From an uncultured delta proteobacterium (GTDB lineage Bacteria > Myxococcota_A > Polyangia > Polyangiales > B10-G4), in contig CAVSGI010000020.1 in assembly GCA_963727445.1 (NCBI GenBank), positions 608,001-672,000 on the forward strand: a DNA stretch of 64,000 bases, read 5' to 3'. Both the position numbers and the translations under genes were made by a program. Position 1 is the stretch's first letter; the number at the start of each line of letters is the position of its first letter. Of this stretch, positions 23,650 through 32,833 are shown piece by piece. The notes under the pieces were generated by a model. That model saw nothing but the letters and a program-made list of their open reading frames with translations. It searched no databases and was not told where the DNA came from.

Positions 23650-26372
23650 ATGGACTTCGGAAACATCGCGGACAAGGCGCTTCTCTGGATCGTCCTACTC
23701 GCCCCTCTTCGGGGCGCTGATCAACGGCGTCGCGGGGCGCTTCGCCAACCGGCAGTTGGTCGGCGCGGTCGGGGTGGGGTCGGTCGCGCTCGCCTTCCTT
23801 CTGGCGCTCATCAGCTTCTTCCACCTGACCGGTCTCAAGACGAGCCTCGGGGACGACGCGCAGATCACGCAGGAAGTGTACGAGTGGTTCTCGCTCTACG
23901 TCGGAACCAGCGAAGTCCCGCTTCGCGTCTCGCTTCGTCTTGGATCGCCTAGCGGCGATCATGACGGTGATGGTCACGGGCGTGGGCCTGCTCGATCCAC
24001 ATCTACAGCTCGGGTACATGCACGACGATCCGGGCTACGCGCGGTTCTTGACCTACCTGAACCTCTTCATGGCCTCGATGCTGATCCTGGTCCTGGGCAG
24101 CAACATGCCGCTGATGTTCGTGGGCTGGGAAGGCGTCGGCCTCTGCAGCTACCTGCTCATCGGCTTCTGGTTCGAGAACGGCGACTACGCCGCGGCCGGC
24201 CGCAAGGCCTTCGTCGTCAACCGCATCGGCGACTTCGGCGTCCTGCTCGGGATGTTCCTGCTCGTCTCGCGGTCGCCGACGCGCGCACCCGCGACGCCTT
24301 CGAGTTCGACGACATCAACCGGCGCCACGCGCCTCGAGCCTCACCGCCGTTCATCCTCGGCGCGCGTCGCGCTCGGCTCGAGCGTCGCGACGGTCGCGGC
24401 GCCTCTTCCTCTTCCTCGGCTGCACCGGCAAGAGCGCGCAGATCCCGCTCTACGTCTGGCTCCCCGACGCGATGGCCGGCCCCACGCCGGTCTCCGCGCT
24501 CATCCACGCGGCCACCATGGTCACCGCGGGCGTCTACCTCTGCTGTCGCCTCGAGCCCGGTCTTCGTGGAGTCGCCCGATCGCGATGGCGGTCATCGCCA
24601 TCGTCGGCGCGCTGACCGCGCTGCTCGCGGCGACCATCGCGCTGGTGCAGAACCAGATGAAGAAGATCCTGGCCTACTCCACGGTGAGCCAGCTCGGCTT
24701 CATGTTCGCGGCGGTCGGCTGCGGCGCCTTCGCCGGCGGCTTCTTCCACGTCTTCACGCACGCCTTCTTCAAGGCCTGCCTCTTCCTCGGCGCCGGCTCG
24801 GTGATGCACGCGGTCCACGCCCACGGCGACGCGGACATCCGCTACCTCGGCGGCCTCCGAAGGACAAGCTCCCCGACGCCCACTGGACCTTCCATCGCGA
24901 GCTGCTTGGCGATCGCCGGCTTGCCGCTCTTCAGCGGGTTCTTCTCGAAGGACGAGATCCTCCTCGGCGCGCTCGAACTGGGCGCACGCGAGTTCCGGGA
25001 GCAGCAGCTGGGTCGGCTGGCTCGTCTTCGTGATCCTCGTGGCCGCGGCGACGATGACCGCCTTCTACATGTTCCGGCTCTACTTCATCGCTTTCCACGG
25101 CACCTACCGCAGCGCGAAGGTGGTACCGGAGGAGGGCGAAGAAGGCGAAGAGGAGAAGGGCTCCTCGATCCCGCCCCCGGTCACGAAGAGGAGCACGGTT
25201 ACGATCCGCATCCCCACCGCCCGGGGATGGCGATCGCTGGCGTGCTCTCGGCGCTCGGCGTGGGCGCCATCGCAGCGGGCCTCATCAACCTCGAGCCGCT
25301 GCTTCACCTCGTGGGTGTCCATGAGCTCGGGGGTGTGGAGGGCGGCAACTTCTGGGGCACCTGGCTCTCGCACACCATCGCTCACTTCGACGCCGACATC
25401 GGCGGTCTCAGCTACCTGGCTGCCGCCGGCGGCGTGGGCGCGATGGCGACGGGCATCGGCCTCGCCTGGTTCTGGTACCTCAAGGAGGGCCGCATGCCGA
25501 TGGCGCAGCCCTCGGGCATCTCCAAGTGGATGATGAACAAGTGGTACGTGGACGAGCTCTACGAGGCGACGGTGATCCGCGCGACGCGCGGCCTCGCGAT
25601 CTTCGCCGCCGCGATCGACAAGTACTTCGTCGACGGCATCCTCGCCCGCGCCACCGCTCTCGGTGTGTCGCTCCTCGGCTGGCTCTCCACCCGCATCCAG
25701 AACGGCGTCGTCTACACCTACGGCGCGGTGATGGTGCTCGGGATGGCGGTTCTCGCCTGGTGGTTCGTCTACCCGCACCCGAGCCTGGAAGGCACGGCGA
25801 CGCGCACCGACGTCACGTGGACCTCCGGTCAGGGGCTCGGCTACGAGTACCGCTGGGACGTCGACGACGACGGCGAGATGGACACCGAGTGGAGCGCGTC
25901 GGAGAACAGCGTCAGCTACACCTACGGCGAGGACAAGTGGAGGGGCTTCGCGCTCTTGATGGACGGCGATCGTCCCGGTGAGCTCGAGGAGGTCGCGCTC
26001 GATCCGGACGGTGACGAGGTCTCCTTCGACGAGGAGCAGATGGGCCGCGGCTGGGAGGCGGATCCAGAGGCCGGGAGCTCGCTGTTGCCCACCTTCCGCG
26101 TCGCCCAGGACGATGAGGGCGGCATCATCTTCCGCAAGAACGATGCGCGCGCCCGCGTCCGCGGCGGCGAAGCCACCGAGGAGGAGCGCCTCCACCCCGG
26201 TGACATCGTGCAGGTCGGCTCGCTCAACATCCGCGTCGGCGCCGTGGTGGCTGCCTCCATCGAGGTGCGCAACACCTTCGGCAACGTCGCCCACGAGACG
26301 CAGGAGATCGTCATTCAACCCGCCGGAGGTCCTCCGGCGGAGGTCGCGGCGCTCCAAGGAGGTGCGCCATGA
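23650..26372 (+). CDS. nuoL: NADH-quinone oxidoreductase subunit L with ~200-aa C-terminal extension (frameshifts in the core)
   Basis: [73 protein letters not shown]. Confidence 0.92.
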
Positions 26373-28112
26373 ACGCGCATCTGCTCAGCCTCCTGATCCT
26401 CCTGCCGTTCTTCGGCGCCTTCGTCGTGGCGTTCCTGCCGCGACAGGCGACGAACACGCTCCGGGCGACCTCGGTGATCTTCATGCTCGTCGAGCTCGTC
26501 GCGAGCATCTGGCTCTTCGACGGGGACTACTCGACGGCGGCGTACCAGTTCGTCGAGCAGTACGAATGGATCCCGACGCTCGGCATCTCCTACAAGCTCG
26601 GCGTCGACGGCATCTAGCTCTGGCTGGTCCTCCTCACCACGCTGCTCACGCCGATCGCGCTCTACGCGCTCGTGGAACTCGGTCAACACCAAGGTCAAGG
26701 AGTTCGCCGTCGCGTTCCTGCTCCTCGAAGTCGGCGATGCTCGGCGCGTTCCTCGCCCTCGACCTCTTCCTCTTCTACGTCTTCTGGGAGCTGATGCTCG
26801 TGCCGATGTACCTGATCATCGGCATCTGGGGCGGCAAGGAGCGCGTCTACGCGGCGGTGAAGTTCTTCCTCTACACCATCGTCGGCAGCCTGCTGATGCT
26901 GGTCGCCATCCTGTACTCGTGGTCGGCAGTACCGAGGCGCCTCGACGGGGCTCGTGACAGCTTCGACCTCGAGCAGCTCAACCGCGTGGTGCTGCCGCAC
27001 GGCGCGCAGCTCGTGCTCTTCTTCGCCTTCGCGCTCGCCTTCGCCATCAAGGTGCCGATGTTCCCGTTCCACACCTGGCTCCCCGACGCGCACGTGCAGG
27101 CGCCGACCGGCGGCTCGGTGATCCTGGCCGCGGTCTGCTGAAGCTCGGCGGCTACGGCTTCATCCGCTTCGCGATGCCGCTCTTCCCGCTGGCCGCGCCA
27201 CTACCTCGGGCCGACGCATCGCGGTGCTCGCGGTCATCGGCATCATCTACGGCGCCTACTGCGCCTGGGTGCAGCGCGACGTGAAGAAGCTGGTCGCCTA
27301 CAGCTCGGTGAGCCACCTCGGCTTCGTGATGCTCGGCATCTTCTAGCATGACCGCCGGCGGCATCTCCGGCGCGATCCTGCAGATGGTCAGCCACGGCGT
27401 CTCGACCGGCGCGCTCTTCATCCTGGTCGGCGTCATCTACGACCGCCGCCACACCCGCGACCTCGCCGAGTTCGGCGGCCTGGCGAAGGTGATGCCGGTC
27501 TACGCGACGCTCTTCGTCATCGTCGCCATGAGCTCGGTCGGCCTGCCCGGCACCAACGGCTTCGTCGGCGAGTTCATGATCCTGCGGCGGCACCTTCGTC
27601 TCCGAGGCACTTCGCAGCACTGGCCGACGCATCTTCGTCGCTCTTCGCGGCGACGGCGTGATCCTCGCCGCGGTCTACATGCTGCACGCGGTGCTCAAGA
27701 CTCTTCTGGGGCCCGCTCGACAACGACGAAGAACGAGAACCTCACGGACCTGAGCCTGCGCGAGGGCTCGCCCTCGCGCCGCTCGTGCTCCTGGTCTTCT
27801 GGATCGGCTTCTTCCCGAGCACCTTCCTCGAGCCGATGGAGCCCTCGGTGGAGCAACTTCATCTCGACGTTCAGGCGCAAGCTGATGCTCGAGAACCAGG
27901 ACGACACCGCGCGCCTGTTGCCGTCACCTGGGGGCCCCGGCCCCGAAGAAGCCGCCGAGGCTACGGCCAGGTCGTACCAGAAGGCGAGGCGACGCCGGAG
28001 CGGAGCGGCGCAGGAGCCCGGCTGGGCTGGCGCGGAGGCGACGCGCCGCGCAGGTGGCGCGCAGCCGGGACTGCGTCAGGTCATCGTGGTGGACGACGGA
28101 GGTGAGGGATGA
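26369..28112 (+). CDS. nuoM: NADH-quinone oxidoreductase subunit M (frameshifts and in-frame stops)
   Basis: [60 protein letters not shown]. Confidence 0.92.
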
Positions 28113-29622
28113 TTGAGAGCTTCAGCGATCTGCTGGTCGCATCGCCGCTCTTCGCGCTGGCCTTCGGCGGCCTCGCGCTGATGCTCGTCGACGCCTTCGT
28201 GAAGGACAAGGGCGAGCTCGCCCTGATGGCGTTCTGTGATCCTCGTCGTCGCTGGCGGGTGCTCGGTGGGCCTGTGGTTCACCGGCCGCGCCACGCGACG
28301 CCCGAGGTCTTTGCGCTCCTACCTGTCGTACGGATCGAATGAGTCTCTTCTTCGACATCATGATCTGCGGCGGCGGCGCGCTTCACCGCGCTCCTCGCGG
28401 GCGGCTATCTGCGCGAGCACCGCATCGAGCGCGGCGAGTTCTACGTCGTGCTGCTCTTCAGCGCCTTCGGCGCGATGGTCCTCGCGCGCGCCATCGAATC
28501 TGCTCTCAGCTCTTCATCGGCCTCGAGACGATGTCGCTCGGCGCCTACGCGCATCGTGCGCGCTACCGGCGCACGAGCCCGCGCGCCGCCGAGGGCGGCG
28601 CTCAAGTACTTCCTGCTCGGCTAGCTTCGCGGCGGCGATCCTCCTCTTCGGCACCGCGCTCCTCTACGGCGCGCACCGGGCACACCGACCTCGCGCGGCA
28701 TCGGTCAGGTCGATCAGCGAGCGGCGACGCGGATCTGCCGCCGTCGATCATCCTGCGGCATGCTCCTGATCGCTGGTCGGGCTCGCCTTCAAGGTCAGCG
28801 CGGTGCCCTTCCACATGTGGACGCCGGACGCCTACGAGGGCGCCGTCACGCCCGCGACCACCTTCATGGCGTCGGTGGTCAAGGCCGCGGGCTTCGCGGT
28901 CATGGTGCGCGTGCTCCTCGTCAGCTTCGGCGACGACGCTCAGCGCGAACGCCGCCACCGGCTGGCCTCCGGTCATCGCCGGCCTCGCCGCGGTCACCAT
29001 GATCTTCGGCAACCTCGCGGCCGTCGCGCAGTCGAGCGTCAAGCGCATGCTCGCCTACTCCTCCATCGCCCACGCCGGCTACATCCTGGTCGGCGTCGCG
29101 GCGTCCTTCCGCGCGGGCGACGCCGCGGTGAGCGCCGTCCTCTACTACCTGATGGCGTACACCGTCTCGAACGCGCTCGCGTTCGGCTCGCTCATCCTCA
29201 TGGGCTCGCGCGGCAAGGAAGCGGTGAGCTACGAGGACCTCGCGGGCGTCGGCCGACGGCATCCTGCCGCGGCGGTGCCCTTCGTCCTCGGCGTGCTCTC
29301 GCTGCTGGGCTTCCCGCCCACCGCCGGCTTCTTCGGCAAGTACTACGTCTTCAACGCCGCGGTCGCCGCGGGCGGCGGCATGGTGTGGCTGGCCGTGCTC
29401 GGCGTGCTGACCAGCGCCATCGGCGCGTACTACTACCTGCGCGTCATCGTCTACATGTTCATGAAGCAGCCCCAGGCCGGCGCGCCGACGGCGGTGCCCA
29501 TGAAGAGCGGCTACGTCCTCGCTGCGCTCATCCTCTCCGGCTATTTCGTTCTCCGCATGGGCATCGCGCCCGGCAACTACCTCGATATGGCGATCGAAGC
29601 GGCACAGCAGCTCGTCGCCTGA
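28109..29622 (+). CDS. nuoN: NADH-quinone oxidoreductase subunit N (frameshifts)
   Basis: [45 protein letters not shown]. Confidence 0.92.
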
Positions 29623-29653: not shown

Positions 29654-30499
29654 GTGACGGCGCTGGTGTACGTTGCGCTTCTCGTGGCCCCGGTCACGGG
29701 ATGTGGACGGATCGGCTTCGACGTCGGCTTGGACGCGACGTCGGATGCGGCGCTCGGCGACGGGGCGATGGATGGGGCCGGGATGGACGCCAGTGAGGGC
29801 GGCCTCGACGCCGCGCCGGACGTCTCCCTCGCCGACGGGGCGACCGACAGCGCTCCCGACGGGGCGATCGACGTGCGCACCGGCTTACTCTTCGAGCTCG
29901 CTTTCGATGACTCCACGACATCCGACACTTCGGGGGGCGGTCACGACGCACGCTGTGCGGGGATGGGGTGTCCAACGCTCGACCCGATGGGCGTCAGCGG
30001 GCAGGCCGCTTCCTTCGACGGGAGCGGTCAATACCTCGTCGTCGACGACGACGGCACCTTCGAGCTCGCTGGCGGGTTCACCGTCAGCACCTGGGTGAAC
30101 CTCTCGGCCGCGGTGGCACGGACCTGCTTCTTCACCAAGCCTCTCGGCGGGGCTTCCGAGAACTCCTTCGCGCTCTGCGCCGACGCGCAGGTTCCCTTCA
30201 TGTACGTGTGTGGCGCGGGGGGCTGCTCCCTGCAGAGCGCTTCCGTGTCGATGCCGCTCGACACCTGGTTCCACCTCGCCATCACCAACGATGGGATGAC
30301 GCAGCGCTTCTATGTCGATGGTGCGGAGGCTGCCCTCAGCACGATCGCGCTCGCCTTCGACAGCAGCGACGCGATGGTGGTGGGCGGCGACTCGGATGGC
30401 GGGCTGGCTTTCGCGATGACGGGGCTCCTCGACGAGATACGCGTCTACGACCGAGCCTTGTCGATGGACGAGATCGGCGTCCTCGCCACGCGGCCTTGA
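29654..30499 (+). CDS. LamG/concanavalin-like lipoprotein
   Basis: Lipobox [42 protein letters not shown]. Confidence 0.85.
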
Positions 30500-30606
30500 G
30501 GCCGCGAAGCCCAGGATCTGGTCAATGCCGGGTCGGCCGATCGACACGAGGGCCGGGTGGTGCGCCGTACTGCGGAGTCGAGTCTGCATTCGGAGCGTAC
30601 TGGCCG

Positions 30607-30622
30607 GGGCACGCCCTTTGCG
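30607..30622 (+). promoter_or_regulatory. Possible sigma54 promoter for the M23 lipoprotein gene
   Basis: GGGCACGCCCTTTGCG (GG-N10-GC), ~13 nt before in-frame GTG 30635. Confidence 0.45.
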
Positions 30623-30634
30623 ACGTGGGAGCTC

Positions 30635-31600
30635 GTGGGCTACCGCTTTCAAAGCATCTTCGTCGCATGGCTGGCCTTGTCGGCCGCGGCCTGCACCAAT
30701 ACCCCGCTGCCCTCCGACCGCCCGCCGCCGATGATGGAGAGCGCCGACGCCGGCACGGATTGGAGCGACGCGAGCGATCCAGATGCCGCGGCCCTGCCGG
30801 AGGACGCCGCCGCCTCCATGGCCGATTCCGGCTCGGCTCCGGACGCTGCGATGGAATGTCCCCGCGTCCGCATCACCACCGTCGGGCTCACCCTGAACGT
30901 TCGCCCCGATCCCTCGACCGCGGGCGATCCCATCGGCGCCCTCGACCCGGGCACGGTGGTGACGGTCGTCGACGTCACCCATGGCGAGATGGTGGACGGA
31001 GACGACGTCTGGTACGGCATCGAGACGGCGACGCTGATGGGTTACGTCAGCGGTCGTTTCGCCGAGTGCACCATGGAGGAGGAGACCTTCGCGTCCATGG
31101 ACGGCTTCTACCTGCCGCTCGAGTGCGGCATGCGCGTGCGCATCAGTCAGGGCAACAACGGCACCTACAGTCATCGAGGCAACAGCGCCTACGCCTTCGA
31201 CTTCTCCGTCCCGCTGAACACGCCGCTTCACGCGATCGCCGACGGCGTCGTGATCCTCGTTCAGGATGGGACGCATCCGGGCGACCCCTGCTACGACGGA
31301 GGCGGTCCGGAATGCGCCACCGAGGCGAACGGCGTCGTCGTCCGTCACGCCGATGGTCACGCGTCGCAGTACGCGCACTTGAACGCGGTACGCGTCAGCG
31401 AGGGGGACACCATCCGGCGAGGGACCGTCGTCGGGCTCTCGGGAAGCACCGGCTACTCGACCGGACCACATGCCCACGTTCAGCTGCAGGAGGTCTGTGG
31501 GTGGCTCTCCTGCCAATCGGTTCCGCTGCGTTTCGAGGACGTGCCGGGGGACGGCGTTCCTGAGACCGGCGACTACGTCACGTCGATGAACTGCCCCTGA
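30635..31600 (+). CDS. SH3 plus M23 peptidase lipoprotein
   Basis: Lipobox AAAC; LNVRPDPST SH3b-like; SHRGNSAYAFD, YAHL, STGPHAH; start could lie upstream (30557). Confidence 0.85.
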   Translation: MGYRFQSIFVAWLALSAAACTNTPLPSDRPPPMMESADAGTDWSDASDPDAAALPEDAAASMADSGSAPDAAMECPRVRITTVGLTLNVRPDPSTAGDPIGALDPGTVVTVVDVTHGEMVDGDDVWYGIETATLMGYVSGRFAECTMEEETFASMDGFYLPLECGMRVRISQGNNGTYSHRGNSAYAFDFSVPLNTPLHAIADGVVILVQDGTHPGDPCYDGGGPECATEANGVVVRHADGHASQYAHLNAVRVSEGDTIRRGTVVGLSGSTGYSTGPHAHVQLQEVCGWLSCQSVPLRFEDVPGDGVPETGDYVTSMNCP

Positions 31601-31634
31601 GGGCCGGGGTCGCCGGGAGCGGGTCGACCGGGGT

Positions 31635-31703
31635 TCAGAGCGCGAGGGCGAGGCGGGCGCGACTGCGGGCCCGGGCGCGGAAGAACTTGAGGATGCGTGT
31701 CAT
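31635..31703 (-). CDS. Putative 22-aa Arg-rich peptide MTRILKFFRARARSRARLALAL (or part of an sRNA)
   Basis: ATG 31703 to TGA 31635; purine-rich leader GAAAGAGAAAGAAACGGA; sigma54-type promoter directly upstream. Confidence 0.55.
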   Translation of the reverse strand: MTRILKFFRARARSRARLALAL

Positions 31704-31747
31704 TGGATTGTCCGTTTCTTTCTCTTTCGAGAGACACCCAAACACTG

Positions 31748-31763
31748 AGCAGTATTCGTGCCA
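31748..31763 (-). promoter_or_regulatory. sigma54 (-24/-12) promoter
   Basis: Minus strand TGGCACGAATACTGCT, exact GG-N10-GC spacing. Confidence 0.75.
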
Positions 31764-31859
31764 CGGGTGAGGCCACGGGGCCATGACGGAATCACGAGGC
31801 TTTTATGCCCTGATGTGGCCAATTGGAGCACACCCCGCGCCACATGGGTGGGGCCTTTT

Positions 31860-31910
31860 CGTAACAGGTGACGCTTTGTCGGTGTCTCGATTGGCGTAAC
31901 ACCTGTTACG
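31860..31910. promoter_or_regulatory. Pair of dyad sites, probable enhancer-binding-protein UAS
   Basis: CGTAACAggTGacgc (31860) and CGTAACAccTGTTACG (31895-31910); 11-bp perfect inverted repeat overall. Confidence 0.6.
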
Positions 31911-31984: not shown

Positions 31985-32833
31985 ATGTCTCGACGGGCTC
32001 TCGCCATCCTCATCCTCCCCTCCTTCCTCGGCCTGGGCTGCGGCTCGGGATGCGAGCGACGAGAGGAGGATGCCCACGCCACGAGTGGGTCTCAAAGTGA
32101 GGCGCCGCGCTTCGGGACCGTCGAAGGGGTGGTGCGCATCGCGGCTGGCGCGGAGTTGCCGACAAATCCCGATCTGCGCACGCCGGCGCAGCCGCCGATG
32201 CCCGAGGCATGCACCCCGCCGCTTATCAGCGATCGCCAGCCCGTCACCATGGGCGACGATCGGCTCCTCGAGGGCATCCTCGTTCAAGCCTCGGATTTCT
32301 CGGAGCAGGCCATGGAGCAGGTGAAACGCGAGCCCGTGACGCACGAGCTCTTCATCCGCGACTGTCGCCTGACCCCACGCTTCATTCCTGCCGTCATCGG
32401 CGACACGCTGAAGCTCACCAACGAGACCGACTACCCCTTCATGCCCACGATGGGCGGAGGCGGCCTGATGCAGGCGGTGCTCTACCAGAACAGCCGGGAG
32501 TTTCCTCTCGACCGCGGTGGCATCTTCAGCATGACCTGCGGCTTCGCGGCGCCCTGTGGCCGTTCGGACATCGTCGTCGTCTTTCATCCCGTGCACACGG
32601 TCACCGGGGAGGGGGGCGTGTTCCGGATGGAGAACGTTCCCGCCGACGAAGACGTGTCCATCCACGCGTGGCATCCGCTCTTCGAGGACGTCTCTCAGAC
32701 GGTGCGGGTGGGCGCCGGGGAGACGACTCACATCGAGCTCGAGATCACGCCGGCGCCCCAGCCCGAGCCGCCGCCGCAAGAAGAAACCGAGGAGCCCACC
32801 GGGCCAGCTGAGAACCAGCCGGGTCTCTTCTGA
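31985..32833 (+). CDS. Lipoprotein with cupredoxin-like and carboxypeptidase-regulatory-like domains
   Basis: Lipobox LGC; CRLTPR..GDTLKLTN; HPVHTVTGEGGVFRMENVP..HAWHP. Confidence 0.65.
   Translation: MSRRALAILILPSFLGLGCGSGCERREEDAHATSGSQSEAPRFGTVEGVVRIAAGAELPTNPDLRTPAQPPMPEACTPPLISDRQPVTMGDDRLLEGILVQASDFSEQAMEQVKREPVTHELFIRDCRLTPRFIPAVIGDTLKLTNETDYPFMPTMGGGGLMQAVLYQNSREFPLDRGGIFSMTCGFAAPCGRSDIVVVFHPVHTVTGEGGVFRMENVPADEDVSIHAWHPLFEDVSQTVRVGAGETTHIELEITPAPQPEPPPQEETEEPTGPAENQPGLF

Follow-up and report, generated by a model that had tools for sequence, protein, structure and literature searches.

In Pseudomonas syringae, according to passages of PMC8999054, the enhancer-binding protein HrpRS acts with sigma54 to drive the gene of the ECF sigma factor HrpL (ECF32), and an anti-sigma factor is not needed. 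Passages of the same work describe AntA (ECF282), an ECF sigma factor that carries AA at its C-terminus and is degraded by ClpXP (PMC8999054). CmpA of Bacillus subtilis, in turn, is presented in excerpts of PMC5506225 as a small ClpXP adaptor which is itself degraded and whose substrate is SpoIVA. In Myxococcus xanthus, the sRNA Pxr is characterised, in parts of PMC5568312, as non-coding, with three stem-loops, adjoining nla19 and confined to Cystobacterineae. In the same species, the Nla28 half-site is given as CT(C/G)CG(C/G)AG (passages of PMC9765219), and Nla28 enhancer half-sites are clustered 80-150 bp from the -24/-12 promoter (passages of PMC7910581).

Small proteins usually turn up without any clue to the pathway in which they act. 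Here we describe a predicted micro-gene for which boxes shared with a single sigma factor supply such a clue, and which belongs to a gene family overlooked by blastn, Pfam, NCBIfam and two large protein collections. Its putative ECF partner, with no recognised anti-sigma factor and a predicted degradation tag, offers a handle on how ECF factors devoid of an anti-sigma are switched off. Moreover, the same enhancer lies upstream in some lineages and downstream in others, which constitutes a natural series.

The predicted unit and its surroundings

The window (the whole stretch of DNA analysed, 64,000 nucleotides) contains a gap of lower GC (0.633 vs 0.684 for the window), in and around which the following features are found, positions being those of the window:

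30557..31600, plus strand: convergent gene with SH3 and M23 peptidase domains (Pfam), outside the unit
31602..31634, minus strand: GC-rich 3' stretch with a weak hairpin, a possible transcript end; not conserved
31635..31703, minus strand: predicted micro-protein gene, 22 aa, MTRILKFFRARARSRARLALAL, supported by 10 homologues and a codon signature
31711..31715, minus strand: weak ribosome-binding site ACGGA, with AAAGGA, AAGGAG, GGAG or GAGG in the other members that have a leader
31721..31734, minus strand: 5' hairpin TCTCT-CGAA-AGAGA, by sequence; not conserved
31748..31763, minus strand: sigma54-type -24/-12 promoter TGGCACGAATACTGCT, by sequence; a similar site is found ahead of each of the 11 members
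31860..31873: imperfect pair of boxes CGTAAC-AG-GTGACG, proximal, by sequence; at this distance the congeneric genome G001 retains a single CGTCAC half-site
31895..31910: distal box pair, a perfect dyad (CGTAACA-CC-TGTTACG) lying 132 bp upstream of the -24 element and predicted to be the site of the activator
31985..32833, plus strand: divergent lipoprotein-like gene with a weak carboxypeptidase-regulatory-like match, outside the unit

The original prediction had placed in this gap a hidden unit under the control of sigma54 and an enhancer, with a tiny product, and this is supported by the conservation of promoter, ORF and boxes elsewhere. The promoter, the 5' hairpin, ACGGA, the 22-aa ORF and the lower GC are all present where they had been located. 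Two of its details needed correction: of the two dyads claimed, that at 31895-31910 is complete, whereas that at 31860-31873 has a shorter spacing and one mismatch, and the GC hairpin at about 31602-31634 is present but weak, without a U tract and not conserved.

Transcription from the promoter is predicted to start at 31737; a search of sequencing runs listed no RNA set, and the one DNA run does not extend over the unit. The half-sites of the window lie at -148 to -103 from the GG of the -24 element, within the range of 80-150 bp upstream, and the -24/-12 element has its GG and GC ten bases apart in 11/11 members, the site having been part of the search pattern for 4 of the 11. The distance from GC to ATG is 13-49 nt, and three members (G023, G115, G170) are near-leaderless, with no room for a hairpin such as that of the window, so that this 5' hairpin must be dispensable; G001 carries a different one at its place.

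Outside the unit, G001 and G023 have no SH3 and M23 gene between nuoN and the unit; this gene and a LamG-domain gene (29654-31600 for the two together) are inserted between nuoN and the micro-gene in the window genome only. Upstream of this insertion in window coordinates (23756-29622), nuoL/M/N-like genes that are intact in G001 are broken into shifting frames, probably by assembly indels.

The window peptide (31703-31635) has 6 Arg, 1 Lys and no acidic residue. Such a basic composition is commonplace, being found in 765 of the 7934 ATG ORFs of 18-26 aa of the window genome (at least six R/K and no D/E), and composition alone is therefore no evidence. What lifts the unit above chance is that promoter, ORF and boxes are kept in other genomes.

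The micro-gene family and its likely product

The family comprises 11 genomes, a lower bound, from 7 genera and 4 families of the order. Each homologue is a stand-alone ORF of 20-28 codons (peptides of 20-28 aa) behind a -24/-12 site, at several unrelated loci. The conservation that the original prediction suggested looking for is thus found, the ORF with its promoter being present in 10 genomes besides that of the window, with silent changes in excess.

Two members, G001 and G163, were found by synteny, the peptide sequence being unused. In G001, the region upstream of the orthologue of the divergent gene contains MARIFRYFRARARLRALLAATR behind a -24/-12 site, with the dyad at a 127-bp gap; G163 was reached via synteny with murB, and its profile score is merely 4.9 bits. 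Iterated profiles added G023, then G123 and G115, and then G288, the five-row profile giving 33-45 bits for members vs at most 19 for noise (201 genomes). A pattern combining promoter and core matched in 9 of 46 genomes, and in none with the reversed control; the matches were G163, short ORFs new in G192, G216, G170 and G035, and four long ORFs (183-195 aa) that were dropped. Since it was through amino-acid profiles or patterns that the majority of members came to light, in-frame conservation is inflated, and kin are not independent. Promoter, start and stop played no role in the profile searches, and 6/6 of the members then known have a -24/-12 site before them vs 1/92 noise loci. The unpublished genome G122 supplies one of these 92, and one of the 29 negative lipoprotein loci discussed below; neither it nor G387, also unpublished, underlies any positive claim.

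Blastn of the gap against 60 relatives gave low-complexity matches only, and a pattern requiring F8, R11 and R13 retrieved, in 80 genomes, two controls and two non-members. Applied to 150 genomes sampled from the phylum and to viral contigs, the profile detected no additional member; as it misses diverged members such as G163, these blanks do not show absence. Beside murB, no micro-gene was seen in G236, G151, G204 or G115. The single match of a metagenome scan is identical to the G001 locus in the stretch compared and is hence not independent.

The neighbours of the members are nuoN, kinase genes and genes that we take, from their sequence, to be murB, trpS and TPR genes. The next gene is convergent in 10/11 members and co-directional only in G115, and a leader or attenuator peptide was discarded because there is no regulated co-directional gene in those ten. 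Searches of Pfam, NCBIfam, PDB sequences, the ESM Atlas and protein sets of 5.8 billion and 1.84 billion sequences returned no usable match to the peptide, a query too short for sensitivity; the G288 peptide had one sub-threshold GRIP match. In the literature searched (mostly papers free of subscription), no description of the peptide or the box was found. The micro-gene family, and its combination with a sigma factor, appear to be undescribed, every part having precedent.

All 11 peptides have a net charge of +5 to +7 and contain no D or E. Their conserved core reads hydrophobic-hydrophobic-R-F-hydrophobic-x-x-R-x-x-x-R, with M1, R11 and R15 invariant, positions 6 (R/K), 7 (F/Y) and 8 (F/I) nearly so, and positions 4, 5 and 18 hydrophobic in every member. 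The Arg-rich, cationic character emphasised at the outset is only part of the matter: R/K6, F/Y7, R11 and R15 are kept, but R9, R13 and R17 vary; the conserved part of the predicted peptide is the core and not the Arg count. Helical periodicity of conservation was not significant (p=0.39). Mimicry of bL34 was rejected, the hhalign probability being 0.6% over 5 columns, and the genome has its own intact bL34.

Regarding the nature of the product, conservation is lowest at the third codon position both in 6 members (0.655/0.745/0.451) and in 10 (0.578/0.660/0.488, with G192 left out as a near duplicate). The pN/pS ratio is 0.54 in frame vs 1.22 and 1.74 in the other sense frames, and 0.56, as expected, in the antisense frame that shares codon positions. 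Furthermore, G163 and G192 differ in 8 codons, 6 of them silently, the 2 replacements falling in the tail. Start, stop and frame are thus kept with an excess of silent changes, as in a small-protein gene. At the RNA level, the folds of 6 members are no better than shuffles (z -0.58 to +0.97), the weak consensus fold has promoter DNA pairing with the ORF, the leader and 3' ends are unalignable among members, and Rfam over the gap gives no match up to E 10. With most changes silent and no conserved RNA fold, a protein is the most likely product, and the ORF is very probably a real protein gene. Of the two products originally envisaged, a peptide or an sRNA, the peptide is favoured by the codon signature, the near-leaderless members and the lack of a shared fold, whereas a structured sRNA of the Pxr type is unsupported; the conserved RNA structure that was also to be looked for is not found among the members. 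Membership of the Pxr family was likewise rejected, as there is no Rfam match, no conserved stem-loops and no location downstream of nla19.

Codon choice adds a nuance. R11 is encoded by four different codons, while codon 6 is CGA in 7/9 of its Arg codons vs 6/44 at other Arg positions (Fisher p=3e-4, kin not being independent), CGA making up 8.5% of Arg codons genome-wide and 15% within the first 12 codons. The window copy has AAG at codon 6. Because CGA occupies this codon in most members, a role at the RNA level is kept in play.

Boxes shared with an ECF sigma gene

The dyad is part of a CGT[A/C]AC box, of which the only other strong cluster in the 9.5-Mb window genome (G000) precedes the promoter of an ECF sigma gene:

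G000 C12:222577-223420 (L217:9577-10420), minus strand: ECF sigma gene with a sigma54-type promoter and eight boxes

Among the 44 sigma54 consensus sites of this genome, that of the ECF gene has 8 half-sites (C12:223250, minus strand), that of the micro-gene 5 and the other 42 at most 2. A box matrix trained on 74 half-sites from other genomes only ranks the ECF and micro-gene clusters first in 9.47 Mb (64.0 and 41.2; next 24.9). In two genomes of another family, the dyad lies 118-119 bp before the -24/-12 site of the ECF gene, and boxes with such a site precede the ECF orthologue in 10 genomes (G000, G005, G024, G037, G082, G115, G165, G123, G288, G163). At the ECF locus of G023, the boxes are present, the promoter is one base too long and the frame is broken; in G001, a genome 86% complete, the ECF gene was not found. 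G005, G024, G037, G082 and G165 carry the ECF gene with boxes, yet no micro-gene was found in them.

Only the general ECF model scores above cut-off for the ECF protein, among the matches listed; its group may be one of those tabulated in PMC7826278. Its homologues end in AA in 120/120 cases among the matches listed vs 86/4086 long ORFs, and this end is predicted to be a ClpXP degradation tag. The names of the sources of these homologues (Myxococcota, Sandaracinaceae) mark the organism of the window as a myxobacterium. The ECF gene is flanked by a PilZ-like gene and by a TPR lipoprotein gene that is divergent, and among its neighbours none was recognised as anti-sigma-like. As for the peptides, 6/11 end in Ala vs 430/4086 long ORFs, with AA in just 3, and 5/11, including that of the window, have no Ala end; the window peptide ends in LALAL and the tmRNA tag of the genome is ANDNALALAA.

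At the micro-gene itself, clusters of at least 3 half-sites occur at 8/11 loci. The boxes are upstream in G000, in G001 and weakly in G023 (2 half-sites, P=0.11), and downstream of the stop codon, 130-240 bp past the promoter, in six relatives (G123, G115, G288, G163, G192, G035); by family, the placement is upstream in two and downstream in two others. There are none in G216 and one in G170. A downstream enhancer is reportedly known for B. subtilis rocG, going by a title cited in PMC3162934. In 5 of the 6 downstream cases (G123, G288, G163, G192, G035) the boxes stand between convergent genes, so that no other gene could use those clusters as upstream sites, while in G115 the co-directional kinase gene could. 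The boxes go with the micro-gene, including to loci without the divergent lipoprotein gene. The latter is present in 83/201 genomes, and the unit lies upstream of it in 3 of the 32 loci read, a few of them short; the 29 loci devoid of the unit speak against the possibility, raised from the start, that the boxes serve only the divergent gene at 31985. Altogether, the micro-gene and the ECF gene are likely driven by a shared activator.

The frequency of the motif tells less. The genome scan for the dyad that had been proposed yields a single GTAACANNTGTTAC in the 9.47-Mb genome, but across the order the exact dyad is no commoner than its reversed control (23 of 401 genomes, and 23 for the control). 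The pattern GTTACG plus promoter, which served only to fetch loci, matches in 28/201 genomes and its reversed control in at least as many, without enrichment. A scan of genome contigs for dyad plus promoter gave at least 118 stretches, mostly due to chance, one locus of which led to the ECF gene. Support for the boxes is their clustering at orthologous promoters, and not the frequency of the dyad or of the GTTACG pattern. As for the activator, 64 candidate genes were checked for self-regulating boxes and none was convincing; a tandem box near one activator gene was set aside, as it falls inside a coding frame, and no activator gene stands beside the micro-gene in the loci read.

Other occurrences of the boxes were also recorded. 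In family f22, box clusters with a sigma54 site drive other genes, L378:3230-3717 (G093) and L377:3395-3640 (G118), one product being a 107-aa protein with a signal-like start and the other a protein of roughly 450 aa, presumably resembling AgmX/PglI-type proteins. Clusters with no recognisable sigma54 site exist at L374:3957 (G123) and L375:3750 (G288), one between a membrane gene and a gene we assume from its sequence to be YajQ-like, the other, a double dyad, beside the remnant of a TetR-like gene. With these and the two f22 loci, the regulon is not always of two genes. In G000, box-like 5-bp repeats are found just upstream of a sigma gene at C14:464637-465559 (L357), which we take from its sequence to be RpoH-like; they come after a sigma70-like TTGCCA-N17-TATACA, with no sigma54 site, and the same or a related regulator possibly acts on this second sigma factor.

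A distinct class of GTAACA-NN-TGTTAC sites, with an A/T-rich centre and no sigma54 site (L170-L173, L176, L179-L181), is located before dehydrogenase-like genes and between MarR-like and dioxygenase-like genes; these are likely repressor operators. Also in G000, tandem repeats of about 50 bp with CGTAAC run within long open frames at C17:221100-221600, and a sigma54 consensus at C15:164182 (minus strand) precedes a 58-aa hydrophobic ORF with a strong ribosome-binding site.

Possible roles of the micro-protein and comparison with known systems

The reading that we tentatively prefer is that one activator controls two genes, one for an unstable sigma factor and the other for a micro-protein tuning it. 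A signal would activate an enhancer-binding protein, which would bind the boxes, upstream or downstream, loop to the sigma54-RNA polymerase and start an mRNA of roughly 130 nt. The micro-protein would then act in the cytoplasm on the lifetime or the activity of the ECF sigma factor: the conserved core may dock on a protein, and the Ala-rich, tag-like tail may engage ClpXP, in which case the peptide, as a decoy or an adaptor, would determine how long the -AA-tagged sigma lasts; alternatively, it could bind the ECF sigma directly as a small anti-sigma. The outcome would be a timed pulse of the regulon of the sigma factor. The steps of activation, looping and transcription are drawn from known sigma54 biology, while a short-lived, trans-acting peptide tuning the ECF sigma is suggested by two things only, co-regulation and the tail sequence, from which an action on the sigma factor may be proposed with reserve. 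The simplest route for it would be ClpXP, by analogy with CmpA. It must be stressed that co-regulation of peptide and sigma does not imply contact. Against this reading stand the five peptides that have no Ala end, the genomes with a box-bearing ECF gene in which no micro-gene was found, and the micro-gene loci with weak boxes (G023) or with hardly any (G216, G170). A more elaborate version, a signalling module peculiar to this myxobacterial order in which one sigma54 activator has just two outputs, a peptide mimicking the tmRNA tag controls sigma proteolysis in place of an anti-sigma, and the whole travels as a mobile cassette of 250 bp whose enhancer flips between upstream and downstream, seems unlikely in its entirety.

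Other readings have to be weighed against this one. The peptide might be co-induced with the sigma and act alongside it as the cationic effector already envisaged in the original prediction, targeting nucleic acid, the ribosome or a membrane surface, which we see as somewhat unlikely. The charge, the absence of acidic residues in all 11 peptides, a hydrophobic patch at the N-terminus and, in the first six members recovered, an alternating R-x-R-x-R whose beta-type moment is strong would suit such an effector; however, the alternating Arg run is lost in G163, G192, G170 and G035 while positions 6, 7, 11 and 15 are kept, so that a defined partner fits better than bulk charge, there is no transmembrane stretch, the mean hydrophobicity is negative and the resemblance to bL34 is not significant. 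That the ORF arose by chance behind a relic promoter, with boxes serving the divergent lipoprotein gene, is very improbable: basic short ORFs are indeed common, and neither blastn in 60 relatives nor the protein databases gave a homologue, but this idea is largely refuted by conservation, since ten homologues keep start, stop and promoter, and the boxes follow the ORF to loci with no lipoprotein gene, most lipoprotein loci in turn having no unit.

A dual-function or base-pairing RNA, acting through a pyrimidine-rich CGAUUC seed or a slow CGA codon with the peptide secondary, is unlikely as well. It would account for the CGA bias at codon 6, and a sigma54-driven sRNA is already known from myxobacteria in Pxr, according to the parts of PMC5568312 concerned; against it stand the AAG of the window copy, the missing conserved fold and Rfam match, the unalignable ends, the four codons used for R11, and the fact that two complement patterns gave only 2 scattered matches in 6 ECF loci, none near a start codon. 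Finally, the peptide could feed back on the enhancer-binding protein or its kinase and so end the pulse, which we judge decidedly unlikely. The micro-gene does share the boxes of the activator and, being stand-alone and mobile, must act in trans. Small feedback inhibitors are common, such as HrpV on HrpS and MgrB on PhoQ. Nevertheless, no activator gene neighbours any member in the loci read, and the peptide, unlike MgrB, has no membrane anchor.

Under the preferred reading, the two-gene output with a tuned sigma factor, the system resembles HrpRS-HrpL as a cascade from activator through sigma54 to ECF factor. It differs in that no co-driven micro-protein of 20-28 aa is described there, as far as the passages go (PMC8999054), and in that the ECF factor here, unlike HrpL, belongs to a myxobacterial group ending in -AA. 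The di-alanine end is shared with AntA, for which the passages mention no small-protein modulator (PMC8999054), and the action through ClpXP proposed for the micro-protein is that of the small protein CmpA as presented in the excerpts of PMC5506225; both likenesses are by description and not by sequence link. Like Pxr, as portrayed in the parts of PMC5568312 cited, the unit is predicted to yield a short transcript of its own from a sigma54 promoter, likewise in a myxobacterium; it departs from Pxr by its coding signature, and neither a shared fold nor a neighbouring activator nor an Rfam match was found for it. As at the Nla28 sites described in the passages of PMC9765219 and PMC7910581, half-sites are clustered with a spacing of 80-150 bp; unlike them, the box reads CGT[A/C]AC and the cluster is also found downstream of the gene.
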